Assembly: GCA_008501765.1 (NCBI GenBank)
Contig: QQUE01000014.1
Coordinates: 141,299-173,298, forward strand
Reading direction: 5' to 3'
Length of the DNA stretch: 32,000 nucleotides
Source: Calditrichota bacterium
GTDB lineage: Bacteria; Zhuqueibacterota; Zhuqueibacteria; Zhuqueibacterales; Geothermadaptataceae
In this document: positions 5,774 through 28,638 of the stretch, piece by piece
Numbering within the stretch: position 1 is the first letter of the stretch
How the letters are laid out: every line of letters starts with the position of its first letter
Made by a program: the position numbers and the translations under genes
The notes under the pieces: model-generated
The model's database searches: none
Told to the model about the DNA's origin: nothing
What the model saw: only the letters and a program-made list of their open reading frames with translations

Positions 5774-6415
5774 CTATTTGATAATCAAACTCACCCGCCG
5801 GTTGGCCTGCAATCCCCTGTTCGCCCCGATTTCGTCAATACGCAAACGGGTATCAGCATATCCCAGCGCAACAAAACGCTTGGGTTGCACATGTTTATTA
5901 ATCAGGTAACGAATCACATGCGTCGCCCTGGCTGCGGATAATTCCCAGTTGGATGGATAATCCGACTTTTTACTTAATGGCACCGTATCCGTGTGCCCTT
6001 CAACTTTTATATTCCGGTTGGCTACTTTTTCACTGTTTAAAATATCCCCGATTCCTCCCAAAATCGGAAAAGCGCCTTGCTTCAAATCAGCCTTGCCAGA
6101 GTCAAAAAGTATTTTATCCTGAAATGTGAGAAGCAATCCATCCGCGGTTAAGGACACCTCAACACTTTCCTGTAAATCATGCTCGGTAACCAATTTATTA
6201 ACCACTTTTTCTAACTCGTGTAGGGGCAATTTGTCACTCTTGCTAAAATATTCCATAATGGCTTCAAACTTGGCCTGATCCACCTGGGATATCGCAAAAA
6301 ACAGGACGAAAAAAGCGAGCAGCAAAGTCACCATATCACTGTAAGACATCATCCAGGCTTGGTTGTCCTTTGCGCGCGATTTCATTATTTTGTCATGAGG
6401 TAAATCGATTCGCAT
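5774..6415 (-). CDS. motB: MotB-family stator subunit with an OmpA-like peptidoglycan-binding domain
   Basis: The N-terminus SYSDMVTLLLAFFVLFFAI carries the conserved Asp just before a single TM helix. The C-terminal domain has the OmpA/MotB motif (GHTD ... NWELSAARA ... NRRV). The start lies 2 nt after the motA stop. Confidence 0.85.
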   Translation of the reverse strand: MRIDLPHDKIMKSRAKDNQAWMMSYSDMVTLLLAFFVLFFAISQVDQAKFEAIMEYFSKSDKLPLHELEKVVNKLVTEHDLQESVEVSLTADGLLLTFQDKILFDSGKADLKQGAFPILGGIGDILNSEKVANRNIKVEGHTDTVPLSKKSDYPSNWELSAARATHVIRYLINKHVQPKRFVALGYADTRLRIDEIGANRGLQANRRVSLIIK

Positions 6416-6417
6416 AA

Positions 6418-7260
6418 TTATGCCGCCTTTTTAAACAAGCCCTGTTTCTTTTGTAATGCCCCTTTGCCTGCGACTTTCATCAGTTTTTTACGCGAACCGG
6501 CGTTTAAATATGCCGCCAGCTTGTCGCGTGCAAAAATATAATTTTTCTTATCATAAATGAGCAAGATAGCCTCGATTTGCAGTGTTTCGCAGAGTAAATT
6601 CGTTTCGGCCTGTTCTGCAATCTTTCCGCCGATCGGTGCAAAAATCATATTGGCGAGAATCAATCCATAAAAAGTTGTGATAAGGGCAATGGCCAGGCCG
6701 GAACCGACATCAGACGGATTGGTTTGCAGTGTCAGTAACATATTTATCAGGCCGATCAGGGTTCCAATCATACCAAAAGCCGGGGCCGTTTGGGACATCG
6801 ACATAAACAGATCGCGTTGTTTTAACTCCCGGGAAACCTGCCATTTAACCTGATCTTCGAGCGTGGTTTTCACTTCTTCGCGTGTGTAGCCATTGACCAA
6901 CATTTGCAGGCCGTCTTTGAAAATCCACAGACCACGAACGTTTTTAAACTGAGCTTGCATAGCCTGAACACCATCGCGCTGCCCGATGCGAATCGCAGTC
7001 ACCATTTTATCGATAACATCGATATAATTGACCCGGCCCGAGCGGAAAATGATAAAATAGGACATGAATCCGCGAAAAACCTCCCGCGACGGATGCGAAA
7101 TAAAAGTTGCAGCGATCGTGCCGCCAAAAACGATGGCCACACCCTGCCAATTGAGAAAAACTTCCGGTGTTGCTTGCCCTGAAATAATTCCATAAGCAAT
7201 TAATGCCACACCTGCCATGACGCCTAATAATGTAAACACGGCTACCCTTTCTATTTTCAA
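6418..7260 (-). CDS. motA: MotA/PomA-family proton- or ion-channel stator subunit
   Basis: Four predicted TM helices with a roughly 100-aa charged cytoplasmic loop between TM2 and TM3, which is the MotA topology rather than ExbB/TolQ. Conserved prolines are present in TM3 (APAFGMIGT) and TM4 (FAPIGGK). A MotA-like C-terminal helix is also present. Confidence 0.85.
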   Translation of the reverse strand: MKIERVAVFTLLGVMAGVALIAYGIISGQATPEVFLNWQGVAIVFGGTIAATFISHPSREVFRGFMSYFIIFRSGRVNYIDVIDKMVTAIRIGQRDGVQAMQAQFKNVRGLWIFKDGLQMLVNGYTREEVKTTLEDQVKWQVSRELKQRDLFMSMSQTAPAFGMIGTLIGLINMLLTLQTNPSDVGSGLAIALITTFYGLILANMIFAPIGGKIAEQAETNLLCETLQIEAILLIYDKKNYIFARDKLAAYLNAGSRKKLMKVAGKGALQKKQGLFKKAA

Positions 7261-7268
7261 TTTAATTT

Positions 7269-7985
7269 TTATTCTTTGTAGCGTGCGACCAGCCCTTTTA
7301 ATTCGTCCAGCTCGGGATTAATTTTCAAAGCATTTTCCCAAGCACGAACGGCTTCATTCACCTCACCATTGACAAAATAAATTGACCCGCCGAGTGAATA
7401 GGCTGATGCTGTTTTTTTCTTTTCCAAACTGGAATTCAGAATTTTTAAGGCCTGATCGTATTCATTTTTATAAAAAAGTTGCTGTGCCAAATTGATATCC
7501 TGAATGATGTCGTCGGTCAAATCTTCACTCGGATCAAAAGGGGCAGCATTGTACGGTGAAGTTTTGGTGCTGTCTTTGGGGCCTAATTGCGTCAACACAT
7601 CATCCCCTTTTTTCACCTCCCACGTGCCATCGGGATGACGTTTCAAATCAAGATCAATATTCGTCGAAAGCGGATCGAGCACCATTTCGATATCCGTGTC
7701 TTTTTGATAAAACTTGACACTGATATAAGGATAACTGGTTGTCTTTTTAAGTTTTGCGCCGTCCAGCTCTGTCACGATCGTGGTTTCACGCTGTTTTTTC
7801 TCCGCCCGGATTGTAGAGTCCGCTTTTTCTTCGATAGCCATTATTTCATCTGGCGAAATCTCGGACGCATCGCCGGGGTTCGCGGGAATTTCCTTTTTCA
7901 CCGTGGCATTATTCCCCCCACAACTTAAAAGTAGGGTGGCCCAGGTTATAAATATAATTTTCACAAAAAGTTGTTTTAATAGCAT
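7269..7985 (-). CDS. TPR-repeat lipoprotein
   Basis: The track ORF extends to 8057 and overlaps the upstream gene. The ATG at 7985 gives MLLKQLFVKIIFITWATLLLSCGG with a lipobox (LLSC). The C-terminus has TPR-like helices (YDQALKILNSSL ... EAVRAWENALKINPE). Confidence 0.7.
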   Translation of the reverse strand: MLLKQLFVKIIFITWATLLLSCGGNNATVKKEIPANPGDASEISPDEIMAIEEKADSTIRAEKKQRETTIVTELDGAKLKKTTSYPYISVKFYQKDTDIEMVLDPLSTNIDLDLKRHPDGTWEVKKGDDVLTQLGPKDSTKTSPYNAAPFDPSEDLTDDIIQDINLAQQLFYKNEYDQALKILNSSLEKKKTASAYSLGGSIYFVNGEVNEAVRAWENALKINPELDELKGLVARYKE

Positions 7986-8013
7986 TTTATCATCCTGTTT
8001 AATAGAGCCAATA

Positions 8014-9162
8014 TTAAAATGAAAGCTGCAACAGCATGAGTTCATATTGCATGCCACTGATTTTCAGATTGAGTTTTTCACCGCTGGATTTTACTTCCTG
8101 AGATTCAAACTCTTTGCCGAGCACCATGCTCACGCCGGCCGAAAATGAAAATCGTTCTGTGAAATCTGTCCGCAAACCAACACTGATACTGGAAATATCC
8201 GGCATTTTCATGGCGAAGTGCCGCGTTAATGCAAAATAGGCAGAAAGCCAGTCAGAGCGGTTGCTTTTACGATTTTCGATCAGCGTCGAATAAAGCATCG
8301 TGCGCACATTGTAGGAAACAGGGATCGAGAAACCACCGGTGCGCGAAGAAGTCCCGTAAAAGCCTGTTTTCGTGAAAGCCGTGCCGTTCAATTCCAGACC
8401 GTCTGTGAGAAATGCCAGTCCAATTCGAAACTCGTAGCGCAAACGGCTTTTTTCCCAACGATATTGGTGCACACCGTAATAAATAGTTTGGTGTTTTAAC
8501 TGATTTGTCGCTTTGGCGTGAATTAAGGTATCACCGGCCGGTACATCCCATTCGATCGGAAAAACTTCCAGCCCGGCGATGAGTGATTTCATAAACGGAT
8601 TCGGAGATGGTAACTCGGGATCGTCCACATAAGCTGCAAATGAGCGTGACCACACGACTTCACTGGTGCCCACTTTGTTCAATTTCAAATCCAGCAGCAT
8701 GGCTTTTCCCGGCAAATAAGTAACGGCGCCGTCCATAAAAGCATCGATTCGCAGGCGTTTGCCTATTTTCCACAATTCATGTGGCGACGGCAATGTATTA
8801 ACGATGCGGAAGCTGCTATCTGTGGAGGCAATTTTCATCGTGTTCATTTCGGGCAATGAAACCATTGCCGGCATTTCCAGATTTCGAAAAATTTCTGCAA
8901 TCCGTGCTTCAAAGTGGGTTCGCAATGCGGGTGGGATATAGCGTTCATCTACCTTTAAATGATACACCGCAATACGCTCAAGATCTGTTCCGACTTCCGG
9001 GGCCGCTTGCGCCACTTGAACAAAAATATCTTCCATTAAATTAAAGAGGAGACTTTTCTGCACCTTTTTATTCTTTTCTTGGCCCGGAAGTGGTGCGGCA
9101 AAACCTAAAATGAATACAATGAAAGCGACCAAAAATCTGTTTAATCTGCATTTATTGCCCAT
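8014..9162 (-). CDS. Signal-peptide protein: periplasmic alpha/beta module (CsgG/LpoB/FlgO-like pattern) plus a C-terminal outer-membrane beta-barrel
   Basis: Signal peptide FLVAFIVFILGFAAPLPGQ. The N-terminal half shows the pattern RIAVYHL ... GKRLRIDAFMDGAVTY ... LLDLKLNKVGTSEVVWS, which parallels the CsgG-family protein at 11799-12725. The C-terminal half has amphipathic beta-strand periodicity and ends in the OMP signature ...LLQLSF. Confidence 0.55.
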   Translation of the reverse strand: MGNKCRLNRFLVAFIVFILGFAAPLPGQEKNKKVQKSLLFNLMEDIFVQVAQAAPEVGTDLERIAVYHLKVDERYIPPALRTHFEARIAEIFRNLEMPAMVSLPEMNTMKIASTDSSFRIVNTLPSPHELWKIGKRLRIDAFMDGAVTYLPGKAMLLDLKLNKVGTSEVVWSRSFAAYVDDPELPSPNPFMKSLIAGLEVFPIEWDVPAGDTLIHAKATNQLKHQTIYYGVHQYRWEKSRLRYEFRIGLAFLTDGLELNGTAFTKTGFYGTSSRTGGFSIPVSYNVRTMLYSTLIENRKSNRSDWLSAYFALTRHFAMKMPDISSISVGLRTDFTERFSFSAGVSMVLGKEFESQEVKSSGEKLNLKISGMQYELMLLQLSF

Positions 9163-9173
9163 GATTTTCTCTC

Positions 9174-10973
9174 TTATTTTACCATTTCTTTGCTGATAGC
9201 CGATTGCCGTACTGTTCGCATGAGCTGTCGGCGTGCGAGGGTAACTTCTTCATCTGTAACGTCGTTGCTGGCCTCAAGGCTGGCCTGAACCATCTCAGCA
9301 AGTTTATCTGGTAAAGCTTCGATTATCCGGTTCACGGTCGAATCATCGACATGGATGAGGGATTTTGCCAATAAATCGCGATCAACAGTAAAAGCCAATT
9401 CGCGTACTTTTTCAGCAGGCAGCTCAACCAGTTGGCTAAAAGTCATGTACTTTGCTTTGATCCGCTGTGATAAATTCAAATCTTGAGTTTCGATGTATTC
9501 CAGGATTTGCTCCTGATCAAAATCATCCATAAAATCAAGAATATTAACCAAGGCGTCAATGCCATCGGAGCGGACAAAACGCATCGATTCAACATCTTTT
9601 GCCCGGACGAGGAGTTGCCTCGCAATGTGCTGATAAACATCCGCCGGCACTTTCTCTACATTGCCCATTGCGGCAAGCGCGGCGGGTTGTTTGCGCGGCT
9701 CCAGCGATTTGATCAATTTATAAGCACGTTCAGGTTGCAACTGTGCTAAAACGATGGCCCGCACGCCGTCTTTCAATGGTTTAATCAGGTGCAATAACTG
9801 ATCATCTGACAATTGGTGTAAAAATGCCAAAGCATCGATTTCTTCTTCATTTCGGATAGCAGAAATGGCTGTATTTCGTAAATTCTCGTCAAATCGTTTT
9901 ATAAGCTCAGGCCCGGCTGTGACCACCTCATCCTCAGGCACTTCTTCCACATGCTGTTGCACATCGGCGGAAATTTTTGCGCCAAGATGCTCGGCAAGAA
10001 ATCCATTTAAATGTTTCGAAGTAGCCCGGAACAAAATGGCAGCATCCCGCGGACCATTGCGTTCATCGGTTTTCACCCATGTTTTAATAACCTGGGCAGC
10101 CGCTCTTGGTGTTCCGATTATCGCATCAACCACCGATGATTTTAGCGTGCGAAAGGCTGCTTCATCCGAGGAAGCTTCAGTCTCTTTATCTTGCGGTTTC
10201 TGCTCGGAGGAGGGAGTTGGCTCCGGCATTACTTTAGGACGTTCCGGACTCAATTTTTTCAGAATTGAATTCATCCCCCAAAAAAGAATAATTAAAAAGA
10301 TGCCGGCGATCACTGCCGCAAATATAAATGGCCGCCAATCCATGCCAGCCAATTGTTCGTCGGGAAAAAGCGATTGTGTGAAGGCTTCCTGTTTGCTGCT
10401 ATCGCGCAAACTTTTTGTACCCAATCGATTGAAATAATTGGCTTTAACCGGGAAATCAAATGCTTCGACTGACACCCGATCCCCACGTTTGGGATCCATA
10501 TCAGCAGAAAGAGAAACCAACCGCCGGATAAATGCCCAGTCCCCTTCGGTGAAACTTTTATCCACCAGCACATTGACATTTAACCGTTTCACTTGCATGC
10601 CGGAGTTCTCCGCCACTTCACGAAACTGGTCGTTTTCCTGCTCGTTGTCATTCCCCTGCCCGGGTATAAATGGTAAACCAGGCAAAGACATTACTTCTTT
10701 TTTCAACAAAACATCAGGAAGCGGCGGCAAGGGTTTGCGCTTGCGTACTTTTTCCAATTGCACATTGGCTTTAACTACAAACTTGGTTTCCGGGAAATAG
10801 GTGAGCAAGGCTGTTTCCAGGTTCCACGAAAGGTTCGCTTCCATCGTTTTTTCGATGCCCTCGAGAGTCTTTTCCGAAGCTGGAATTTGCGCGCTGCTGC
10901 CAACACAGGCTAATCCCCAAACCATTCCTGTAAAAAATAGTCGTTTAAGATTTCTGCAAAATGTTATTTTCAT
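9174..10973 (-). CDS. Membrane-anchored chimera: short FliF/YscJ-like periplasmic region, one TM helix, Pro/acidic linker, then a full-length FliG-like (N, middle, C) cytoplasmic region
   Basis: N-terminal hydrophobic segment (signal peptide or TM1). The periplasmic segment ends in VKRLNVNVLVDKSFTEGDWAFIRRLVSLSADMDPKRGDRVSVEAFDF, which matches the FliF C-terminal periplasmic pattern. TM helix RPFIFAAVIAGIFLIILFWGM. The C-terminal ~145 aa (DGIDALVNILDFMD ... ILEYIETQDLNLSQRIKAKYMTFSQLVEL ... ALPDKLAEMVQASL ...) align without gaps, by eye, to the FliG hinge, MFxF motif and C-terminal domain. Confidence 0.65.
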   Translation of the reverse strand: MKITFCRNLKRLFFTGMVWGLACVGSSAQIPASEKTLEGIEKTMEANLSWNLETALLTYFPETKFVVKANVQLEKVRKRKPLPPLPDVLLKKEVMSLPGLPFIPGQGNDNEQENDQFREVAENSGMQVKRLNVNVLVDKSFTEGDWAFIRRLVSLSADMDPKRGDRVSVEAFDFPVKANYFNRLGTKSLRDSSKQEAFTQSLFPDEQLAGMDWRPFIFAAVIAGIFLIILFWGMNSILKKLSPERPKVMPEPTPSSEQKPQDKETEASSDEAAFRTLKSSVVDAIIGTPRAAAQVIKTWVKTDERNGPRDAAILFRATSKHLNGFLAEHLGAKISADVQQHVEEVPEDEVVTAGPELIKRFDENLRNTAISAIRNEEEIDALAFLHQLSDDQLLHLIKPLKDGVRAIVLAQLQPERAYKLIKSLEPRKQPAALAAMGNVEKVPADVYQHIARQLLVRAKDVESMRFVRSDGIDALVNILDFMDDFDQEQILEYIETQDLNLSQRIKAKYMTFSQLVELPAEKVRELAFTVDRDLLAKSLIHVDDSTVNRIIEALPDKLAEMVQASLEASNDVTDEEVTLARRQLMRTVRQSAISKEMVK

Positions 10974-15165: not shown

Positions 15166-15726
15166 ATGCAATCGCACAAATCAATGGATAAATTTACTAA
15201 CTTCAGGTCAATTGTCGAATCGCATCAGGAAAAAGTGCGCACTACCTGCTTCCGCTATGTTCATAATGCCGAAGATGCGGATGATATTGCTCAGGAAGTC
15301 TTCGTGCAAGTTTATGAATCCCTCACGCATTTTCGCGAAGACGCGGAGCTTTCCACATGGATTTACCGCATTGCCGTAAACAAATCGCTGGATTTTCTAC
15401 GCAAAAAGAAACGCAAAAAACGCTTTGCGCAACTTACTACTTTGTTTGGTTTTGATGAGGGAAAAGAGGAAATTATTTTACCGGCCAGCGGCGATCCACA
15501 ACAGGATATGGAAGCGAATGAACAAAAGCACGTTCTGAATACAGCCATCGAGCGACTTCCGGAAAACCAGCAGACTGTGATCACCCTGAGCAAATACCAA
15601 GGATTCAGCAACAAGGAAATTGCAGATATCATGAAGCTTTCTCTCTCCGCTGTTGAGGCGCTGATGCATCGGGCCAAAAAGAATTTGCACAAGCGATTGT
15701 ATAATTATTATGAAAAGATTGCATAA
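15166..15726 (+). CDS. ECF-family RNA polymerase sigma-70 factor
   Basis: Region 2 (DAEDIAQEVFVQVY ... WIYRIAVNKSLDFLRKKKR) and region 4 helix-turn-helix (LPENQQTVITLSKYQGFSNKEIADIMKLSLSAVEALMHRAKKNL). The true start may be the internal Met at 15184. Confidence 0.9.
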   Translation: MQSHKSMDKFTNFRSIVESHQEKVRTTCFRYVHNAEDADDIAQEVFVQVYESLTHFREDAELSTWIYRIAVNKSLDFLRKKKRKKRFAQLTTLFGFDEGKEEIILPASGDPQQDMEANEQKHVLNTAIERLPENQQTVITLSKYQGFSNKEIADIMKLSLSAVEALMHRAKKNLHKRLYNYYEKIA

Positions 15727-15829
15727 CACGCGCAAGTTTTGGATAAAAAAAACGTCCAAGGATGTAGTGTCAATTATTGCATGAAAAATGAACGTAAAAG
15801 TGCGTCGCATTTTTAAAGAGGGCACAATA

Positions 15830-16156
15830 ATGAATAAAAAAGAAAAAATCGAACAACAAATCCGCGAGACGCTGGATCAGTTTGAGCATGCAGATCAGCT
15901 CCCGCCCAATCCGTTTTTTTATACCCGGGTTAAAGCCAGATTGGATGAGAGGCATCAGCAAAGCCATGTTTTCTTCGCAATTCTTAAACCGGCTCTATTG
16001 GCAGTTTTGGTGGCCATGAATTTGAGCACAGCTTTTTGGTATGTGAGTGTAGATAATCAGGTAACCCAGGTTGATTCACATCAGGAATTAATAGAATTAC
16101 TGGGAAGCGATTTAAAGCTGGACAACAATCAAAGCAACATACTCGATTATAAATAG
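15830..16156 (+). CDS. Putative single-pass anti-sigma factor / membrane protein
   Basis: Position immediately after the ECF sigma gene. Short cytoplasmic N-terminus and one TM helix (FFAILKPALLAVLVAMNLSTAFWYV). I prefer ATG 15830, preceded by AGAGGG, over the track start at 15788. Confidence 0.5.
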   Translation: MNKKEKIEQQIRETLDQFEHADQLPPNPFFYTRVKARLDERHQQSHVFFAILKPALLAVLVAMNLSTAFWYVSVDNQVTQVDSHQELIELLGSDLKLDNNQSNILDYK

Positions 16157-16165
16157 GAATCTAAA

Positions 16166-16732
16166 ATGGACATTTTTAAACAAAACCGCTATTTGTGGAT
16201 TACAATTATTGTTTTATTGATAATGAATTTTACCGCGTTAGCGCTTTTATGGCTGGGAAGACCAGAAGCCAGAAAAATACAAGAGCGTCCGCCTGATCCC
16301 ATGGAAGAACAAATTCGAATACAACAATTATTGAAAAAGGAACTCAATTTCGATGAAACACAGAGCGAACAGTATTTAAAACTGCGCCGGCAACACCGCA
16401 ACCAGGTACAGCAATTACAGATGGATATCAGTCATATAAAAAAACAAATGTTCAATAAAGTTTTACAGGATAATCCCCGGCAGGAACTATCTGATTCTTT
16501 ATTAGCCCTTGCCCAGGAAAAGCAGGCTCAGCTTGAGAAGATTACGTTTCAGCATTTTTTAGACCTTAAAAAATTATGCAAACCGGAACAGCAGGATAAA
16601 TTAAAAATATTATTAAATGAATTTTTTCGTAAAAATGCACCAACTGGAATAAATAATGATATGCCACATCCACCTGCCGGCGCAAGACCTGCGCCACAAC
16701 GTGGTAATGAATCACCACCACCACTCCCCTGA
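16166..16732 (+). CDS. Membrane-anchored Spy/CpxP-family (LTxxQ-like) periplasmic protein
   Basis: N-terminal anchor YLWITIIVLLIMNFTALALLWL. Helical repeats with (L/F)xxxQ motifs (FDETQSEQYLKLRRQH ..., KPEQQDKLKILLNEF). Pro-rich tail. It is the third member of a sigma / anti-sigma / Spy-like trio. Confidence 0.6.
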   Translation: MDIFKQNRYLWITIIVLLIMNFTALALLWLGRPEARKIQERPPDPMEEQIRIQQLLKKELNFDETQSEQYLKLRRQHRNQVQQLQMDISHIKKQMFNKVLQDNPRQELSDSLLALAQEKQAQLEKITFQHFLDLKKLCKPEQQDKLKILLNEFFRKNAPTGINNDMPHPPAGARPAPQRGNESPPPLP

Positions 16733-16758
16733 CACAACAAATTATTCTCAACCATTAA

Positions 16759-16790
16759 GCCTTTCATCAAAAAATGAAGGGCTTTTTTTA
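16759..16790 (+). terminator. Rho-independent terminator
   Basis: gcctttcat-caaaaa-atgaagggc forms a 9-bp stem with one G-U pair, followed by T7. It lies 27 nt after the stop at 16732. Confidence 0.8.
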
Positions 16791-16815
16791 TTTGTAGTCC
16801 ATCCTTTTAAACTAC

Positions 16816-16848
16816 CTGCGCAAGTTATTTTTATTATCCGCGTCTAAA
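16816..16848 (+). promoter_or_regulatory. Candidate ECF-type promoter upstream of the efflux operon
   Basis: ctgCGCAagttatttttattatccGCGTCTAAA. It has the same CGCA-N18-CGTCTAAA spacing as the site at 15108-15140. It lies 43 nt before the GTG start at 16891, which is preceded by AAGGAG. Confidence 0.3.
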
Positions 16849-16890
16849 CTATTAAAGTGATTAACAAAACTGATAAGGAGTTAAAACAAA

Positions 16891-18174
16891 GTGAAAAAGA
16901 AAATATTAAAGTATAGAAGAAGTTTAGGTGTAGCCGTCATTCTCATGACATTGACTACTTACGCATTTGCTTATTTATTTAATGGATTAGAAAAATCTGA
17001 TTTCGTTCTCGAAACAACAATCGTAGAAAGAGGCACGGTAAGCAATATAATTACAGCTACCGGAACATTAGAAGCGACAAACACGGTTATTGTCGGTACT
17101 CAGGTGTCTGGCGTTATTGAAAAGATTTATGTTGATTTTAATTCAGAGGTAAAAAAAGGGCAAAAGATAGCGGAACTGGATAAATCGACCTTACAATCAA
17201 GTTTAGAAAATGCTGAAGCTGACTTATATAATGCACAGGCTGAATTCGAGTATCAACAAGCCAATTTTAACCGGAATGAAGCGTTTTTTAAAAAAGATCT
17301 GTTATCCGCAAGCGATTATGATTTGGCAAAATACAATTTCAAAAAGAGCCAGGCAGGCTTAAAGTCAGCCACAGCCAACTTGAATAAAGCTAAACGTAAT
17401 TTGAGTTATGCCACCATTTATTCACCAATCGACGGGATTGTCCTTAACCGTGCGGTTGAGGAAGGTCAAACGGTTACGGCCAGCATGAACACACCCGAAC
17501 TATTTACCATCACCAATGACCTTGCGGAAATGCAGGTCGAAGCCGATGTGGATGAAGCGGATATTGGCATGGTAAAAGAAGGACAACGGGTGGAGTTTAC
17601 GGTAGATGCATTTCCTGAAGAAACTTTTTCAGGAGAGATTACAGAGGTGCGGTTACAACCTACTGAAACATCAAATGTTATTACCTATACGGTGATTGTT
17701 TCGGCCCAAAATCCGAAATTAAAGTTAAAACCGGGTATGACCGCCAGTATTACCGATTACGTGGAAGAAGTGAATGATGTTCTGGTTCTGGCCGGAAAAG
17801 CTATACGATTTACACCGGATCGTGAACAAATGATGGATTATTTCAGCAGTCTTCCTGAAAGTGAACGGCCGCAACGTCGGTCCGGTAACCGTCCGTCCGC
17901 AACGGCAGAACAAGGCGAATCCCCGCAAGGGGAAGAGATGCCGGATAACCTGAAACGTGTATGGGTAAAAGACGGGTCAACTATAAAACCAGTAACGATT
18001 GAAACAGGCGTCACCGACGGTTCAAATATTGAAATTATTTCAGGATTAAACGAGGGTGACTATGTCATTACGGCCATGGAAATGGGTAGTACAACCAGCC
18101 CGGATAATGAGGATAGCGAAGAAACACAAAAAAGTCCATTCGTTCAGGAGCGTCCTGGTCGCCCAGGGAAATAA
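16891..18174 (+). CDS. Efflux transporter periplasmic adaptor subunit (HlyD/MacA family)
   Basis: N-terminal anchor, lipoyl-like hairpin halves (VSGVIEKIYVDFNSEVKKGQKIAELD ... ATIYSPIDGIVLNR), a coiled-coil hairpin and a beta-barrel domain. GTG start with a strong RBS. Confidence 0.85.
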   Translation: MKKKILKYRRSLGVAVILMTLTTYAFAYLFNGLEKSDFVLETTIVERGTVSNIITATGTLEATNTVIVGTQVSGVIEKIYVDFNSEVKKGQKIAELDKSTLQSSLENAEADLYNAQAEFEYQQANFNRNEAFFKKDLLSASDYDLAKYNFKKSQAGLKSATANLNKAKRNLSYATIYSPIDGIVLNRAVEEGQTVTASMNTPELFTITNDLAEMQVEADVDEADIGMVKEGQRVEFTVDAFPEETFSGEITEVRLQPTETSNVITYTVIVSAQNPKLKLKPGMTASITDYVEEVNDVLVLAGKAIRFTPDREQMMDYFSSLPESERPQRRSGNRPSATAEQGESPQGEEMPDNLKRVWVKDGSTIKPVTIETGVTDGSNIEIISGLNEGDYVITAMEMGSTTSPDNEDSEETQKSPFVQERPGRPGK

Positions 18175-18192
18175 GTAGTTGATTGATGACCC

Positions 18193-18228
18193 GGAATTAG
18201 GAAGTAGGAATTGGGAATTAAAAAAAAG
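18193..18228 (+). repeat. Four tandem GGA-containing heptamers followed by an A-run, in the adaptor-ATPase intergenic spacer
   Basis: ggaatta ggaagta ggaattg ggaatta (18193-18220), then a run of A. Confidence 0.6.
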
Positions 18229-18268
18229 GTTTTAATCCAGGGTAAATTTAAAATTAGAGAATAAAAAA

Positions 18269-19045
18269 ATGGAAAATAAAATAATCGAAATACAGAATCT
18301 GCAAAAAAATTACCGGGTTGGGACGGAAATTGTCAGTGCTTTGCGAGGAGTTAATCTTACAATAAATGCCGGAGAATTTGTGGCAATCATGGGCGCCAGT
18401 GGATCTGGAAAATCTACATTACTCAATATACTTGGCTGTCTCGACAAACCGACTGCAGGCGATTACTGGCTTGATGGGAAAAATGTCAACGTCCTAAAAA
18501 AAGATCAATTGGCCGATATTCGGAATACCAAAATTGGTTTCGTGTTCCAGTCGTATAACCTTTTACCGCGAACCACGGCATTGGAAAATGTGGAACTGCC
18601 CTTATTATATAATCCGAAAATATCAATCAAAATGCGCCGGGAAAAAGCGGAGCATGCTTTGGAAGCGGTTGGATTGGCTGACCGCATGAAACATCTTTCC
18701 AATCAGATGTCCGGCGGGCAACAGCAGCGTGTTGCCATCGCCCGTTCGCTGGTCAATGATCCTGTAATAGTTTTGGCGGACGAAGCGACCGGAAACCTGG
18801 ATACGAAAACCTCATACGAGATTATGGCCCTTTTCCAGGAATTAAATGATAAAGGCATAACTATCGGGTTTGTTACTCATGAACCAGACATAGCAGCCTT
18901 TACAAACAGAAATATAGTGTTTCGCGATGGACGGTTAATCAAGGATATTCAGATGAATAAAATAACAAATGTTGTGGATGCACTTGATCAATTGAAAGAC
19001 GAAGATACGCTACTCGATGAATTTGTTAATGTGTGTGTCGCATAA
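18269..19045 (+). CDS. ABC transporter ATP-binding protein (MacB/LolD type)
   Basis: Walker A GASGSGKST, Q-loop, signature LSGGQQQRVAIAR, Walker B VLADEATGNLD, H-loop VTHE. Confidence 0.9.
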   Translation: MENKIIEIQNLQKNYRVGTEIVSALRGVNLTINAGEFVAIMGASGSGKSTLLNILGCLDKPTAGDYWLDGKNVNVLKKDQLADIRNTKIGFVFQSYNLLPRTTALENVELPLLYNPKISIKMRREKAEHALEAVGLADRMKHLSNQMSGGQQQRVAIARSLVNDPVIVLADEATGNLDTKTSYEIMALFQELNDKGITIGFVTHEPDIAAFTNRNIVFRDGRLIKDIQMNKITNVVDALDQLKDEDTLLDEFVNVCVA

Positions 19046-19089
19046 ACAACACAATTATGAGTGAATGAACTCATTATTTAAACAAAAAG

Positions 19090-20322
19090 ATGGTCAGAAA
19101 AATGAAAATACTAACCTTACTAAAAATTGCCATGGTAGCAATAAAGAGAAATAAAACACGCTCGGTTCTAACTATGTTAGGAATTATCATCGGTGTGGCT
19201 TCGGTTATTGCCATGCTTGCCATTGGTGAAGGATCTAATGCCAGTATAAAATCACAAATAGCCACTATGGGTACAAATCTAATTAATGTAATGCCTGCAA
19301 GTAAAAACAGGGGCGGTGTTCAACAAGGCCGGGAAATGTCACAAACTCTGGTTGTTGCAGATGTCGATTTTCTCAGAGAAAACAGCGAATTAATCTCAGC
19401 AGTATCGCCCGAGGTTGGTGGTTCTGGCCAGGTAATTTTTGGATCAAACAACTGGCCAACTCAAATATTTGGTGGGAACGAGGATTATACTTATATCAAA
19501 AAGTATGATGTTGCCAACGGCCGTATTTTCTCATCACAAGATATAAAAAGTGCAAGGAAAGTATGCCTACTTGGACAGACTGTTGTCGACAATGTATTTG
19601 GTGAGGATATTGATCCCATTGGGCAAACCATCCGCTTTGAAAAGATACCATTTACAGTTATTGGTATCCTGAAAGAAAAAGGTGAAAATACATTTGGGCA
19701 GGACCAGGATGATATTATCCTGGCACCTTACACCACGGTGATGAAAAGAATTACCCGCCAGACACATTTGCGCGCGATTGTTATGTCAGCGAGTTCTGAA
19801 GACCTAATCGACGAGGCCAGTTCTCAAATCGAAGCAGTAATGCGTCTTTCGCATAAATTAAAGGATAGTGAAGATAATGATTTTGAAATAAGGACCCAGG
19901 CAGAATTAATCAGTACTTTTGGCTCTATATCCGAAATGATGCTTGTTCTGCTTGGTTCTATTGCGGCAATATCTTTGGTTGTAGGAGGCATTGGCATCAT
20001 GAATATCATGTATGTCTCCGTTACCGAACGAACTCGTGAAATTGGCCTGCGCCTTGCAGTAGGTGGGAAAGGGAAGGATATATTAATGCAGTTCCTGCTT
20101 GAAGCAATTTTGTTGAGCACAATTGGAGGTTTGGTAGGGGTTGCTATTGGTATCTTTACATCAAACACTGTTGAAAACATAATGGCCTGGCCTGTACTTA
20201 TTACCCCGGATTCCATACTGCTTTCTTTCTTGTTCTGCACTTTTATCGGCGTGTTTTTCGGCTGGTACCCGGCACGGAAAGCCGCGGCCTTGGATCCTAT
20301 CGATGCACTAAGGCATGAATAA
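19090..20322 (+). CDS. ABC transporter permease, FtsX/MacB family
   Basis: N-terminal TM helix, a roughly 230-aa periplasmic domain, then three C-terminal TM helices with the FtsX-like motif (ERTREIGLRLAVGGKGKDILMQFLLEA). The start may be ATG 19102 (MKILTLLK). Confidence 0.85.
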   Translation: MVRKMKILTLLKIAMVAIKRNKTRSVLTMLGIIIGVASVIAMLAIGEGSNASIKSQIATMGTNLINVMPASKNRGGVQQGREMSQTLVVADVDFLRENSELISAVSPEVGGSGQVIFGSNNWPTQIFGGNEDYTYIKKYDVANGRIFSSQDIKSARKVCLLGQTVVDNVFGEDIDPIGQTIRFEKIPFTVIGILKEKGENTFGQDQDDIILAPYTTVMKRITRQTHLRAIVMSASSEDLIDEASSQIEAVMRLSHKLKDSEDNDFEIRTQAELISTFGSISEMMLVLLGSIAAISLVVGGIGIMNIMYVSVTERTREIGLRLAVGGKGKDILMQFLLEAILLSTIGGLVGVAIGIFTSNTVENIMAWPVLITPDSILLSFLFCTFIGVFFGWYPARKAAALDPIDALRHE

Positions 20323-23264: not shown

Positions 23265-23669
23265 ATGGGTAATCAAAAGAAAATTAATTATGCAATACTT
23301 GTAATTCTGTTAGGTATGATATTTTCCAGTAATTTATTTGCTCTGCCACAGCGTCCTCAAGGTCCACCACCAATGCCGGATTCCACCCAAATTGCAAAAA
23401 TGGTTGACGAACTGGCCGCAGAGCTTTCATTGAAAAAAGATGTAAAGTCGAAAATTAGCGATTTGTATTTTGACCATTTTGATGAAGTCGGAACAATGAT
23501 GAAGTCAAGCAAAGGCGACCGTAGAAATCAGCGCACTAAAATGGATGCTTTGAAGAAGAAATTTGAGAAGCAGGTGAAAGCGCTTTTGACTGATGAACAA
23601 AAAGATAAATTCAATGAATTTATGAAAAAACGCCGCCCTCGGCCAGGCCAACAAAAAGCTAAACGCTGA
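23265..23669 (+). CDS. Small secreted helical protein with an LTxxQ motif (Spy/CpxP-like)
   Basis: Signal peptide (ILVILLGMIFSSNLFA), a Pro-rich segment, helical Lys-rich repeats including LLTDEQKDKFNEFMKKR, and a good RBS (AGGAG). Confidence 0.5.
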   Translation: MGNQKKINYAILVILLGMIFSSNLFALPQRPQGPPPMPDSTQIAKMVDELAAELSLKKDVKSKISDLYFDHFDEVGTMMKSSKGDRRNQRTKMDALKKKFEKQVKALLTDEQKDKFNEFMKKRRPRPGQQKAKR

Positions 23670-23781
23670 TCAGTTCCAATGTCGCTTTTTCAAATTTCAA
23701 AAAAACAAGCGCAAGTTTTTAAAACGAATGGCGTCATAAGTAATAAACAAACGAATGACAACCAAACAATTTAAGGTAAAA

Positions 23782-26094
23782 ATGATGAAAGCTCGCCACA
23801 CACTTTTGATATTATCCTTTTTGCTACTCTTCAACGTAAATTCTTACAGCCAGGATTTTTATGATATCAACACCATCAATACTGTGGAAATAACTTTTGC
23901 GGAATCAAACTGGGATTATCTGCTGGACAACCTGTTTGCCGCGGGCGATGAAGAGCGCTTGCTGGGATCAATTGTTATTAACGGAACCAGCTACGACAGC
24001 GTTGGCGTGCGCTACAAAGGCAACAGCAGTTACAACGCCAATCAGGTTAAAAATCCATTAAATATAAAACTCGATTACATGGTTGATAATCAGGAACATG
24101 AAGATTATGGCACCTTAAAATTGGCTAATGTCTATAAAGACCCCAGTTTTGTCCGGGAAGTTTTGAGCTATGAAATTGCCCGGCAATACATGCCTGCGAG
24201 CAGAGCAAATTATACGAAAGTCTACATAAACGGCACCTATTTAGGGCTGTACACAAGCGTTCAGGATGTTGACAAACACTTTGTCAGCAGTCATTATAAT
24301 AGCAGGAACAATTCCTTTTTTAAAGGGGAATTAACAAATGACAGCCCTCAAAATGTCGTAAAAATATGGGGTTATTTTGGGGAAGATTCAGCCAGTTACA
24401 CAGCCTACTACGAACTGGAATCTGACTATGGCTGGGCCGATTTAATAAACTTTCTTGATATATTGAACAATAACCCTGAATCAATAGAAGCAGTATTAAA
24501 CGTCGATCGCCATCTATGGATGCTGGCCTACGATATTCTGTTTGTCAATTTAGATTCACCAGTAAATTTTGCCCACAATTATTATTTATATCAAGACGAC
24601 GCCGGACGGTTTAATCCGATTATTTGGGATTTGAATGAAAACTTTGGTGTTTTCTCCATGCTTCTGAGTGGCAGCCCTTTATCTACTTATACCATGCAGC
24701 GACTCGATCCGTTTTTAAATTCAACGAATAGCAATTTCCCGATAATCAACAAAATACTCAGCGATCCAACTTATAAAAAAATGTACGTTGCCCACATGAA
24801 AACTATTATGGATGATTATTTCAGTACAGGATTATTTCGTTCAAGAGCATTGGAAATTCAGGATATAATTGCTACTGAGGTGCAAAACGATCCCAACAAA
24901 TTTTATACATACACAAATTTTACTAGCAATCTCGATTACAGTGTAGGCAGCGGTGGCGGACGTCCGGGGCAAATTCCATCCGTTATTGGAATTACGGAAT
25001 TAATGGATGCCAGGGTTGCTTATCTGAGTTCGCTTGCTGAATTTCAGACACTCAGCCCGGAAATATCAAATATCGAAAAAAGTCCGGCTAATCCTGGTAC
25101 GAATACAAATGTGTGGATAACAGCACGTGCGACTTCGGCTGAATCCGTACAATTAGCTTATCGCAGTAGTCTCACGGCTGCTTTTGAAAAAATAGCCATG
25201 GCAGATGACGGTAACAACAACGATGGATCTGCTGGCGATGGTATTTACGGCGTTTCCATGCCAACGGGCACAAGTGGATTTCAGTACTATATTTATGCGG
25301 AAAACGATGATGCAGTATCTTTTTCACCGGCACGGGCTGCCTATGAATTTTATACCCTGGCTGTTTCGGGCGATTTAGTGATAAACGAATTTATGGCAAG
25401 CAATGATTTGACAGCAGAAGATTCGCAGGGGGAATTCGACGACTGGATTGAAATTTACAACAATACAGATAATGATATTGCCTTGTCCGGATTTTATTTA
25501 TCCGATGACAGCGATGATTTGACGCAATGGGCATTCCCGGACACCATTATTTCCGCAAACGGTTATTTAATCGTCTGGGCAGACAACGATTCAGGTCAGG
25601 TTGGGCTGCATGCCAATTTTAAACTCTCAGGCTCAGGCGAAACCATTTACCTGGTAAATAGCGATACTTTGATTGTTGATGAAGTGAATTTTAGTGAACA
25701 AACTACCGACATTTCAACCGGCCGTTATCCAAACGGGACAGGAGCTTTTACGCAAATGGATCCCACTTTTTCGGCTGAAAATCAGAGTGGTGTAACAAGT
25801 GTGGCAAGTGATGATGTAGCATCTGTCCCCGACGGTTTTACGTTGAATCAGAATTATCCGAATCCATTTAATCCGAGCACGACCATTTCTTTTGAACTGG
25901 CCAGTCCGAGCATGACTTCACTGAAAATCTATAACCTTATGGGGCAGGAAGTCGTGACACTCATCGATGAACAACTATCTGCAGGAACGCACCAGCTTTT
26001 GTGGAACGCTCAAAATTTGGCCAGCGGAATTTATTTTTATAATCTGCGAAGCGGTTCATTTTCAGAAACAAAGCGCATGATTTTTATGAAATAA
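23782..26094 (+). CDS. Secreted CotH-family atypical kinase-like protein with a lamin-tail domain and a T9SS type-A C-terminal sorting domain
   Basis: Signal peptide MMKARHTLLILSFLLLFNVNSYSQ. CotH pattern (VRYKGNSS ... NPLNIKLDY ... KLANVYKDPSFVREVLSYEI ... YTKVYINGTYLGLYTSVQDVDKHF ... WDLNENFG). LTD pattern (LVINEFMASN ... DWIEIYNNTDNDIALSGFYLSDD ... FKLSGSGETIYL). CTD (LNQNYPNPFNPSTTISFEL ... GIYFYNLRSGSFSETKRMIFMK). Confidence 0.85.
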   Translation: MMKARHTLLILSFLLLFNVNSYSQDFYDINTINTVEITFAESNWDYLLDNLFAAGDEERLLGSIVINGTSYDSVGVRYKGNSSYNANQVKNPLNIKLDYMVDNQEHEDYGTLKLANVYKDPSFVREVLSYEIARQYMPASRANYTKVYINGTYLGLYTSVQDVDKHFVSSHYNSRNNSFFKGELTNDSPQNVVKIWGYFGEDSASYTAYYELESDYGWADLINFLDILNNNPESIEAVLNVDRHLWMLAYDILFVNLDSPVNFAHNYYLYQDDAGRFNPIIWDLNENFGVFSMLLSGSPLSTYTMQRLDPFLNSTNSNFPIINKILSDPTYKKMYVAHMKTIMDDYFSTGLFRSRALEIQDIIATEVQNDPNKFYTYTNFTSNLDYSVGSGGGRPGQIPSVIGITELMDARVAYLSSLAEFQTLSPEISNIEKSPANPGTNTNVWITARATSAESVQLAYRSSLTAAFEKIAMADDGNNNDGSAGDGIYGVSMPTGTSGFQYYIYAENDDAVSFSPARAAYEFYTLAVSGDLVINEFMASNDLTAEDSQGEFDDWIEIYNNTDNDIALSGFYLSDDSDDLTQWAFPDTIISANGYLIVWADNDSGQVGLHANFKLSGSGETIYLVNSDTLIVDEVNFSEQTTDISTGRYPNGTGAFTQMDPTFSAENQSGVTSVASDDVASVPDGFTLNQNYPNPFNPSTTISFELASPSMTSLKIYNLMGQEVVTLIDEQLSAGTHQLLWNAQNLASGIYFYNLRSGSFSETKRMIFMK

Positions 26095-26236
26095 TCCGCA
26101 ATGTGATGAAATTGCTGCTTTTAGCAATATTATCGCTACACTACCCCAACGAATTAATTCCATTACTTCGAGTGATTGAATCGAGTTAGCTGAATTCTTG
26201 CTAATTCAGCTACAAAATTAATAGAGAATTAATACC

Positions 26237-27106
26237 ATGATTAACACCGAAACTACACCGACTGCCTATTTAACTGAAGAAACATCGCCTGTTTCTTTAA
26301 TGCAAAATTCGAACTTGAACCCAGCGCCTTTTGAACTGTTCAAATCTATTCGGTTATTTGATTCTATCACATTAAAAGAGATTCAAAATATCGGATTAAT
26401 GAATCGAATCGACACCAAATTTGTTTTTCACGGTGAGCTATTACCCCGGCTGCTGCACCAACTCACAAATTACTACAATATTTTAGAAATTGAAGACAGC
26501 CGGATTTTTACATACGAAAACATCTATTGGGATACACCCCATTTTAGTTTTTATCACAACCATCATAACGGCAAACTCAACCGTTACAAAGTGCGCCACC
26601 GGCGCTACAAAGAAACGAGCGCCACTTTTTTAGAAATAAAATTTAAATCCAATAAAAAGCGGACGATAAAGCAACGCATGTCGGTGCAGGATCTGCACAA
26701 TAAAATGCCCTCAACGGAAAATATGTTTTTAAAGCAACGCCTGCCGGTCGAATTTCATCACCTGCAACCAAGTTTGTTTGGGACGTATAAGCGAATCACC
26801 TTTGCCAGCAAAAAATCGAACGAACGTGTCACCATCGACTTTGATGCGCAGTTTCAAAATCCGGAAAGCAGCAAGAAAGTCCATTTAAAGAAATTGGTGA
26901 TTGCCGAAGTCAAGCGGCCAATAGCATTGGCCTCGTCCCTATTTCTGGATATCATGCATAATTATCGCATCCATACTTCTTCCTTCAGCAAATACTGCAT
27001 TGGATGCAGCATGACAGCTCCGGAGCAGATAAAAACAAATCGTTTCAAAATGCAGCTGCGTGGGCTTAATTTTATAGAACTTAAGGATAACCATAAATGG
27101 AATTAA
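26237..27106 (+). CDS. VTC-domain (polyphosphate-polymerase-like, CYTH/triphosphate-tunnel fold) protein
   Basis: RIDTKFVF ... IENIYWDTPHFSFYHNHHNGKLNRYKVRHRRYKETSATFLEIKFKSNKKRTIKQR ... ERVTIDFD ... LVIAEVK shows the alternating basic/acidic beta-strand pattern of VTC/CYTH tunnel enzymes. No TM segments. Confidence 0.7.
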   Translation: MINTETTPTAYLTEETSPVSLMQNSNLNPAPFELFKSIRLFDSITLKEIQNIGLMNRIDTKFVFHGELLPRLLHQLTNYYNILEIEDSRIFTYENIYWDTPHFSFYHNHHNGKLNRYKVRHRRYKETSATFLEIKFKSNKKRTIKQRMSVQDLHNKMPSTENMFLKQRLPVEFHHLQPSLFGTYKRITFASKKSNERVTIDFDAQFQNPESSKKVHLKKLVIAEVKRPIALASSLFLDIMHNYRIHTSSFSKYCIGCSMTAPEQIKTNRFKMQLRGLNFIELKDNHKWN

Positions 27107-27741
27107 ATCTAACCAATATCTTCAGTGCAGACTTTGGTCTGCGAACGTTTTTAGACCTCACAGGTATTTTGATTCTCGTCCGCTTTATCTATTACCCGGC
27201 CTACAAAAACAGCGATTTTGTTTTTAGTTTTTTTATGTTCAATTTTATCGTTTTTATGCTCACTTATTTTTTGCATAATGTCGAAGTTTCAATGGGACTT
27301 ACTTTCGGTTTGTTCGCCATTTTTTCCATGCTGCGATATCGTACGGAATCCATTTCCATCAAAGAAATGACCTATCTTTTCGTATCCATCGCCATCGCGA
27401 TGCTCTGCGCAATTATTAAAACTTCCCCGGCCGGACTCACAATCATTGTCACCGGTGTGCTTGTTTTGACCTGGTTTGTGGATTCAAATCTCTTTCTCAA
27501 AAAAGAAGTGCGCAGGACTGTTCTTTTCGAAAAGATCGAGTTGATTAAACCGGAAAATCACAAACTATTAATGCGTGACCTGCGCGAACGCACAGGTTTG
27601 GATATCCATCGTTTTTATGTGCAAAAGATAGATTTCTTACGAGATACGGCTGCACTCAAAGTTTTCTACTATGAAAACCGATGCTTAGAAAATGGGATCG
27701 AATATATCGAAGAATATGAAGGAGAAATTTCTGAAGTGTGA
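27097..27741 (+). CDS. DUF4956-like polytopic membrane protein
   Basis: Four to five TM helices followed by a ~70-aa soluble tail. The start overlaps the VTC stop (ATGGAATTAA), implying translational coupling. The pairing with a VTC-domain gene is the usual context for this family. Confidence 0.6.
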   Translation: MELNLTNIFSADFGLRTFLDLTGILILVRFIYYPAYKNSDFVFSFFMFNFIVFMLTYFLHNVEVSMGLTFGLFAIFSMLRYRTESISIKEMTYLFVSIAIAMLCAIIKTSPAGLTIIVTGVLVLTWFVDSNLFLKKEVRRTVLFEKIELIKPENHKLLMRDLRERTGLDIHRFYVQKIDFLRDTAALKVFYYENRCLENGIEYIEEYEGEISEV

Positions 27742-27884: not shown

Positions 27885-28556
27885 CTGCGCACCGACTCCC
27901 GTTCTCTTGATATGGCTTTGATGACAAAAACCGAAAGTAGCAGGAAGTCGCAATTATCGCCTTGCATGCTTGCGGTTTGTCGACTCAGGATTTTCGGGAT
28001 CATCTTGAGGATATCTATCAGGTTGAAGTTTCATGTGAGCTTATCTCTCATGTGACCAATGGAATTATTAATGAAGTTCGTGAATGGCAGAATCGTCCAT
28101 TGAATGCTCAATATCCGATTGTTTATCTCGATGCTTTAAGGGTCAATATCCGAGAACAGGGGCAGATTATTAAAGAGGCTGTTTATCTGGCTTTAGGAGT
28201 AAATACTGAGGGCCACAAAGAACTTCTTGGTTTGTGGATTAAAAAAAAATGAAGGTGCCAAATTCTGTTTGAGCGTCATCACTGAGTTGAAAAATCGTGG
28301 TGTGGAAATTATATTTGTCGCTTGTGTGGATGGGCTCAAAGGCTTACCTGAAACCATCAATACTGTTTTTCCAAAAACCAATATTCAGCTCTATATCATC
28401 CACATTGTGCGTAATTCTCTGAAGTTTGTCTCCTGGAATGACCGGAAAAATAGTGCGCAGGACTTGAAAAATATTAAAAAAAAATGGTCCATGCCTATCC
28501 AAAACTGGAAGCAGGCAATGAACCAATTAACCATTATTTATGAAGATCGAATCTAA
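27885..28556 (+). pseudogene. Decayed IS256-family (Mutator-like) transposase remnant
   Basis: IIALHACGLSTQDFRDHLEDIYQVEVSCELISHVTNGIINEVREWQNRPL ... YPIVYLDALRVNIRE ... AVYLALGVNTEGHKELLGLWI, then a frameshift in an A9 run (28241-28249), then NEGAKFCLSVITELKNRGVEIIFVACVDGLKGLPETINTVFPKTNIQLYIIHIVRNSLKFV. The N-terminal ~90 aa are missing. An internal deletion at a second A9 run (28476-28484) joins DLKNI directly to the C-terminal KKWSMPIQNWKQAMNQL. The left boundary is approximate. Confidence 0.8.
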
Positions 28557-28638
28557 TACGTTTACATAAAATTATTTAGAAGCTCGATATAGACGTTATA
28601 TTGTCAATGGACTTTTCCCAACAATATCCGCACTCTTT

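Follow-up and report, generated by a model that had tools for sequence, protein, structure and literature searches.

Genes for a CotH protein, a polyphosphate polymerase and a DUF4956 protein have been described together as accessory genes of pel operons in Gram-positive bacteria (10.1101/768473). In Streptococcus intermedius, where the three genes are SIR_1594-1592, loss of the DUF4956 gene or of the CotH gene lowered aggregation in one medium by over 50%, and the two deletions affected Pel levels in opposite ways; the same study assigned the streptococcal DUF4956 protein to the MgtC/ACT type and reported that the triad is not found outside Pel loci (PMC12345266, mBio 2025). Here, we analyze a copy of this triad in a 32,000-nucleotide stretch of DNA (the window) from a Calditrichota bacterium (assembly GCA_008501765.1, contig QQUE01000014.1, positions 141,299 to 173,298; C15:141299-173298 in our numbering of its genome, G000). 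There are no pel genes in the window, as no Pel family was matched among the larger open reading frames (ORFs) scanned throughout the 32 kb. The triad does occur outside Pel loci, both here and in a set of 80 loci from other species, which contradicts the published statement. An earlier note, made from the DNA letters of the window, had held that the functions of such clusters have not been established; this part stands, but the triad itself had been published before, at Pel loci of Gram-positive bacteria (2020, 2025).

The window's triad shares with that of the pel operons its three adjacent and co-oriented families, a secreted CotH, a cytoplasmic VTC protein and a multi-helix DUF4956 membrane protein with a small C-terminal domain. 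It differs in that it does not lie downstream of pelDEADAFG, in that its host is diderm, and in that its CotH carries a lamin-tail domain (LTD) and a type IX secretion system (T9SS) sorting domain, not FN3. We find that this locus is one copy of a widespread, conserved envelope module, and we tentatively propose, as a reading that may well be right though we stop short of calling it probable, that the VTC/DUF4956 pair synthesizes and exports polyphosphate as part of an envelope module with CotH. The features of the module are as follows.

23755-26094, + strand: secreted CotH kinase-fold protein, 779 amino acids (ORF); an alternative in-frame ATG at 23782, the start taken in the earlier note, gives 770 amino acids
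26095-26236, + strand: spacer between the CotH and VTC genes, 142 bp, with two hairpins and without a canonical terminator
26237-27106, + strand: soluble VTC-domain protein, 289 amino acids, Vtc4-like triphosphate-tunnel enzyme by prediction and putative polyphosphate polymerase
27097-27741, + strand: DUF4956 protein (Pfam), 214 amino acids, predicted in the inner membrane, overlapping the VTC gene by 10 nt

The ORF positions, domain calls, overlap and shared orientation given in the earlier note were all reproduced from the ORF list and Pfam. The end of the VTC gene and the beginning of the DUF4956 gene share the 10 nt ATGGAATTAA at 27097-27106, an overlap that indicates translational coupling of the two. 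The spacer between CotH and VTC, previously put at about 140 bp with small hairpins and with co-transcription not established, folds with a minimum free energy of -32 kcal/mol (z -3.7 vs shuffles). Neither of its hairpins carries a U-tail, the terminator scan was negative in the gap, and a weak sigma-70-like match lies at 26106-26133. All three genes may sit on one transcript.

VTC and DUF4956 behave as one unit. We assembled 80 VTC loci from other species by taking the top matches to a single query, most of them in Bacteroidota and Gammaproteobacteria, and scanned them with our own profiles. DUF4956 lies directly 3' of VTC on the same strand in 77 of these 80 loci, and in 74 of the 75 with 700 bp or more of downstream sequence, with intergenic gaps mostly of -31 to +13 nt. 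Within a 151-genome sample of the window's phylum, VTC is present in 87 genomes and DUF4956 in 87, with near-identical tallies family by family, and among 14 control genomes both match the same three. One control genome, that of B. thetaiotaomicron, is matched by CotH as well as by VTC and DUF4956. Among the 150 top DUF4956 representatives, one carried a CotH domain and three carried DUF2490 in the same predicted protein. We set these fusions aside as evidence: in P0173 (the CotH case), P0150 and P0223, the joint carries the apparent signal peptide of a second gene and they are probably read-through or gene-calling artefacts, and P0186, which has no signal-peptide segment at the joint, was likewise not used.

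CotH is linked to this unit. A CotH gene lies upstream of VTC, on the same strand and within 2.2 kb, in 27 of the 67 loci with room for one, and is immediately adjacent in 16; from the CotH density of the window's genome, we estimate a chance expectation of about 0.2%. For the window itself, we estimate from the 13 CotH genes and 2 pairs in the 5.9-Mb genome that about 1% of such genomes would have a CotH no more than 1 kb from a pair. Given these low expectations and the recurrence of the arrangement in other phyla, the adjacency is not chance. The CotH sequences themselves point the same way. The window's CotH domain shares 41-48% identity with the VTC-linked CotHs found in Bacteroidota and at most 25% with the 12 paralogs in its own genome, and the deepest split of a maximum-likelihood tree (support 100/100) separates 33 VTC-linked CotHs and one unlinked paralog from 11 unlinked paralogs and seven loosely linked CotHs, all unlinked controls being from a single genome. 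By sequence, then, the window's CotH falls into a VTC-associated clade and is far from 11 of its 12 paralogs, and the gene-neighborhood association on which the earlier note's reading depended is a strong one.

The VTC protein looks like a catalytically complete enzyme of the Vtc4 type. Pfam VTC (PF09359) matches residues 56-259 (E 6e-28, 98 bits) over profile positions 1-233 of 235, and the scan of the 289-residue protein returned no further domain, the SPX domain and the DUF202-type membrane domain being absent. An AlphaFold model built from 25 homologs (mean predicted local distance difference test score, pLDDT, 85.5) was used in a fold search whose top 13 PDB matches are Vtc4, Vtc2 and Vtc3 chains (E 6e-11 to 3e-8), the best being yeast Vtc4 (3G3R), with YgiF and the CYTH cyclases ranking behind the Vtc chains. 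Across 102 VTC sequences (this genome, the 80 loci from other phyla and about 20 from the window's own), R57, K61, R116, K118, R120, R122, E133, K135, K145, R186, D201, E224, K226, S251 and K252 are invariant. The triphosphate/Mn site of Vtc4 consists of K200, R264, R266, K281, Y359, R361, E426, S457 and K458, of which K458 is the single position lost in the inactive Vtc2/3 and thus separates them from active Vtc4 (10.1101/2023.01.27.525886). Candidate counterparts in the window's protein are K61, R120/R122, K135, R186 (with Tyr or Phe at 184), E224 and S251-K252, so the tunnel residues whose conservation the earlier note had left to be checked appear to be in place.

This correspondence is partly drawn from motif order. 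A search of the PDB with the single VTC sequence returned nothing, and a profile of 25 VTC sequences matched yeast Vtc2 at no better than E 0.4 and did not reach Vtc4; since Vtc4 is out of reach of the sequence profile, direct alignment to a yeast chain (Vtc2) covers the Y-x-R strand only, and the other equivalences follow motif order and the full-length Pfam match. In common with the yeast VTC complex (Vtc4/Vtc3/Vtc1; 3G3Q/3G3R, 7YTJ, 8I6V), the bacterial pair would have the tunnel fold, the basic residues, the metal-binding Glu, the Ser-Lys and a small membrane partner. It differs in having neither SPX nor membrane helices in the catalytic chain, in having DUF4956 as the partner, and in its location at the bacterial inner membrane as opposed to the vacuole.

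DUF4956 was matched by its Pfam family (PF16316) at residues 21-191 (E 2e-52, 177.6 bits). In its AlphaFold model (pLDDT 79), residues 11-129 form five helices, in line with the four to five transmembrane segments previously suggested, and a small alpha/beta domain (137-192) comes after them. Between helices 3 and 4 lies an invariant motif, G71-L-F-A..F..R80-Y-.-T83 ... M91-T-Y-L-F, of which the R80-Y-R-T-E stretch would be on the cytoplasmic side if the C-terminal domain is cytoplasmic. The earlier note had also seen in DUF4956 a bacterial equivalent of the channel of the yeast VTC complex. We tried this protein as a homolog of that channel and dropped the idea, as the model's fold search returned no PDB entry at a significant level, and nothing resembling the membrane domains of Vtc1 or Vtc4; a single-sequence search of the PDB also returned nothing. 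A channel role is thus suggested by gene context, with no support from homology or fold. The order of the two parts, membrane helices first and a small alpha/beta domain after them, is also that of MgtC, with its membrane domain and ACT domain. Pfam MgtC did not match even at E 10, and the ACT-like matches of the C-terminal domain (aspartate kinase, 3AB2; about 58 residues) are weak, at E 0.6-1.4. ACT is a ligand-sensing fold.

The CotH protein is modular. Pfam matches CotH at residues 85-391 (E 9e-47), LTD at 537-646 (E 5e-18) and Por_Secre_tail at 701-776 (E 3e-11), and a choice-of-anchor-X motif lies at 480-508. Its N-terminus, a basic stretch followed by a hydrophobic one and then SYS-QD, is by inspection a Sec signal peptide. 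At the other end, the T9SS type A sorting domain of NCBIfam, TIGR04183, reaches 46.9 bits (cut-off 23), and the sorting domain in PDB entry 8GLJ matches the C-terminus. The genome encodes SprA (738 bits), and each genus relative yielded more than 100 matches when searched with the CotH protein, mostly to the lamin-tail/sorting part of the query. Given SprA and these many matches, export through Sec followed by T9SS delivery to the cell surface, as previously proposed for this protein, is a credible route.

A profile of VTC-linked CotH domains matches the CotH of Bacillus cereus (5JD9) at E 5e-40, and the NLD (265-267) and WD (291-292) motifs align with its D224 and D247. By a +4 numbering, these are D228 and D251 of B. 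subtilis CotH, catalytic and metal-binding residues whose mutation kills the kinase (PMC7821199). D267 is kept in 49 and D292 in 47 of 52 CotH domains, and the window's protein has both. The Pfam CotH domain and the aligned catalytic and metal-binding aspartates are thus shared with the Bacillus CotH, a spore-coat Ser/Thr kinase (5JD9/5JDA), whereas the window's protein is predicted to be exported to the surface of a non-sporulator, is about twice as long because of its LTD and sorting domains, and has Gln at residue 170 (window 24262-24264) in place of a Glu that is found in 49 of the 52 domains. The same Gln170 is present in the ortholog of a genus relative, G149 (83% identical). Kinase activity is likely for this CotH, although full activity is not assured given Gln170.

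Further evidence comes from what lies next to the pair elsewhere. In 10 loci, in Gammaproteobacteria, a phosphate-selective porin of the OprO/P type follows 3' of DUF4956, and nine of these 10 have CotH upstream. In 38 loci, in Bacteroidota, the gene at this position encodes a DUF2490 barrel, with a lipoprotein and a repeat protein 5' of VTC. Altogether, an outer-membrane barrel of one kind or the other follows DUF4956 in about 65% of the loci. Within the window's own phylum, HlyD-like genes lie directly upstream of VTC, and a family other than the window's (L130:6426-9453, L129) has the order DUF4956, HlyD adaptor, TolC-type OEP, VTC and a 1135-residue protein. That three unrelated kinds of outer-membrane or periplasmic parts lie beside the same pair is our strongest reason to think that a substance passes through the envelope, and the phosphate-selective porin gives a hint of its nature. 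Genes of tripartite efflux systems (pump, HlyD and TolC) and OprO/OprP porins resemble the module's surroundings in that such genes stand in a row with DUF4956/VTC in relatives; they differ in that none is adjacent in the window and in that DUF4956 is unrelated to the known pump families.

Two further arrangements in the phylum were noted. In genome G030, a VTC domain is fused to the N-terminus of a large protein of the 1135-residue type, in an open frame of more than 1146 codons. At L124:3244-8124, a long-form DUF4956 (344 amino acids) lies between a 924-residue Omp85-like protein and a phytase-like esterase, with the same layout in L123 and L125, and in these three genomes of one family (L123-L125) PPK1 and a CHAD-domain protein are encoded about 6 kb downstream of the long-form DUF4956. 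We did not count this last linkage, as unrelated metabolic genes lie between.

The window's genome is 5.9 Mb in size and 98.9% complete, with 13 CotH genes and two VTC/DUF4956 pairs. No match was found in it to PPK1 (PF02503, PF13090), PPK2 (PF03976) or Ppx/GppA (PF02541), leaving the VTC enzyme as the only recognizable polyphosphate synthase of this genome. PPK1 is present in 48 of the 151 genomes of the phylum. Some families carry VTC and appear to lack PPK1 (11/12 vs 0/12 in family f10; 5/5 vs 0/5 in f23); across the 151-genome sample, no clean pattern of PPK1/VTC complementarity emerged, many genomes having both or neither. The second pair of the window's genome (G000:C14:8827-10357, L003) is 67% and 75% identical to the window's pair. 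It diverges from a conserved, cytoplasmic protein of 875 residues, an arrangement kept in two genus relatives (L014, L015). This neighbor has no Pfam match, and its C-terminal half is GHMP-kinase-like by eye; as a hidden CotH it was rejected (hhalign probability 0.2%, no signal peptide), and it is also unlike the Omp85-type neighbor of the long DUF4956 forms. The window type of module was found in two of the four genus members searched, G000 and G149, and only the second-pair type in G060 and G077. The G149 copy lies at the same locus and is split over short contigs.

Taken as a mechanism, our tentative reading runs as follows. The cytoplasmic VTC protein would be a Vtc4-type triphosphate-tunnel enzyme with its substrate- and metal-binding positions kept, and DUF4956 would be its obligate inner-membrane partner, made from the same message by coupled translation. 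Most likely, the two would use ATP at the cytoplasmic face to make a phosphate polymer and pass it to the periplasmic side, and the surface CotH would, again most likely, act on or with the exported phosphate compound at a place where ATP is scarce. Polymerase activity, translocation through DUF4956 and a chemical link between the product and CotH are each plausible, judged from folds, residues and gene context. The more specific claim, that the secreted CotH takes its phosphoryl groups from exported polyphosphate and, in this organism without PPK, that the pair is the sole polyphosphate route, we regard as a long shot. Several points weigh against export by the pair or against its tie to CotH. 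About 60% of the sampled loci lack a CotH in the 2.2 kb upstream, the second pair of the window's own genome has no CotH beside it, the 80 loci were gathered from one query, and the unlinked controls of the CotH tree share one genome. The pair in the window is adjoined by no porin, DUF2490 barrel or HlyD and TolC genes: the profiles of the DUF2490 and porin neighbors found nothing in the window, and the only matches of the porin profile in the genome are unlinked, on contigs C13 and C10. With no outer-membrane conduit gene beside the pair, the window does not explain the route of the polymer across the outer membrane of a diderm. To these points are added the failure of the DUF4956 fold search to return a Vtc-like membrane domain and the substitution at residue 170 of CotH. 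To our knowledge, no bacterial VTC protein has been assayed so far, and we know of no CotH-fold kinase that uses polyphosphate. In S. intermedius, finally, no change in aggregation or Pel was reported upon VTC deletion, and the authors think that the polyphosphate may stay in the cytoplasm (PMC12345266).

That view leads to an alternative which we consider rather unlikely but take seriously, namely that the pair is a polyphosphate synthase for internal storage that replaces PPK, with DUF4956 as its anchor or regulator (MgtC-like with ACT) and CotH only co-regulated, for example under phosphate stress. The genome without PPK1, PPK2 and PPX, the two families with VTC and without PPK1 (f10 and f23), the second pair without a CotH neighbor, the weak ACT-like fold matches of DUF4956 and the preference of the mBio 2025 authors for cytoplasmic polyphosphate would all suit such an enzyme. 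It would not, however, need an OprO/P porin, a DUF2490 barrel or HlyD and TolC beside it, as the pair has in three unrelated layouts; many genomes, moreover, have both PPK1 and VTC (family f4, 7/7 and 6/7; the control genomes of B. thetaiotaomicron and M. acetivorans), and the clade of VTC-linked CotHs argues for a relationship beyond shared regulation. OprO/OprP porins are uptake channels for pyrophosphate and phosphate. Their presence after DUF4956 in 10 loci could accordingly be turned around, such that the porin admits phosphate, pyrophosphate or polyphosphate, DUF4956 moves it inward, VTC acts as a tunnel hydrolase or chain trap, and CotH with its lamin-tail domain binds or processes an external substrate. 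YgiF-type tunnel enzymes, which are hydrolases, are indeed among the fold matches, but Vtc4 is the best match, by three orders of magnitude in E-value over YgiF; the Ser-Lys pair of active Vtc4 is invariant, and the HlyD/TolC partners in the window's phylum belong to export systems. We therefore find inward transport very improbable.

The Gram-positive loci suggest yet another product. Because the triad occurs there in Pel operons and the DUF4956 and CotH deletions move Pel in opposite directions, the pair might make or transfer a phosphorylated or pyrophosphate-linked carrier, or a short oligophosphate on a glycan or protein, with CotH modifying the same surface polymer using a nucleotide donor. 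No polysaccharide-synthesis genes adjoin the triad in the 32-kb window, the tunnel residues match the triphosphate holders of Vtc4, and phosphate-selective porins better suit an inorganic anion, so that we judge this possibility improbable. Hardly credible, in our estimation, is a CotH that is merely adjacent, one of 13 scattered CotH genes with no functional tie to the pair. The number of paralogs in the genome, the structured 142-bp spacer with its promoter-like match and the restriction of the module to two of four genus members would all permit it. Against it stand the estimated chance of about 1%, the ortholog at the same locus in G149, and the CotH tree, in which only the window's copy among the 13 CotHs of the genome groups with those found directly beside VTC elsewhere (one unlinked paralog shares its side of the tree). 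Synthesis and export of polyphosphate by the pair, within an envelope module that includes CotH, thus remains the reading we work with, at the tentative strength given above.

Two further features border the module in the window.

23265-23669, + strand: small exported protein, 134 amino acids, with a weak LTXXQ/Spy-like match; module membership uncertain
27950-28560, + strand: frameshifted remnant of an IS256-family (Mutator-type) transposase (Pfam Transposase_mut match to a 109-residue piece; blastn to annotated IS256 transposases)

The small upstream protein has a signal-peptide-like N-terminus, and its match to Pfam LTXXQ is below the cut-off (E 0.0085). In G149, a copy with 66% identity lies directly 3' of DUF4956 (L094:1562-2065), and a fragment of the gene is also found 5' of CotH (L119). 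As it is found by the cluster in two arrangements, in the window and in G149, this gene stays with the cluster and is a possible accessory. Downstream, the cluster is ended by the IS256 remnant, at the position where other lineages usually have an outer-membrane barrel gene; beyond it lies an unrelated lipoprotein gene on the opposite strand. Elsewhere in the window, positions 5774-10973 encode a MotA/MotB stator, one protein joining FliF-like and FliG domains, and TPR and barrel proteins, with no other flagellar genes in the window. Positions 15166-20322 hold a row made up of an extracytoplasmic function (ECF) sigma factor, a small ORF, a Spy/metal-resistance-like periplasmic protein, an HlyD adaptor, and a MacB-type ABC ATPase and permease, which has the look of a standard efflux operon that includes a regulator of its own.

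In conclusion, our analysis adds to the published record a triad in a diderm, remote from any pel operon, whose CotH is apparently T9SS-sorted; VTC-adjacent CotHs that form their own clade; a genome, the window's, without PPK1, PPK2 and PPX; and a VTC/DUF4956 pair that is joined to three kinds of outer-membrane parts across phyla. Function being inferred throughout, the value of these observations is a sharper, testable hypothesis on two open questions, namely how secreted kinase-fold enzymes work where ATP is scarce and whether bacteria export polyphosphate. If the proposed reading is true, bacteria would have a second, non-PPK route to polyphosphate together with a source of phosphoryl groups outside the cell, and, if CotH uses the exported polyphosphate, surface proteins or glycans could be phosphorylated outside the cytoplasm, without ATP.

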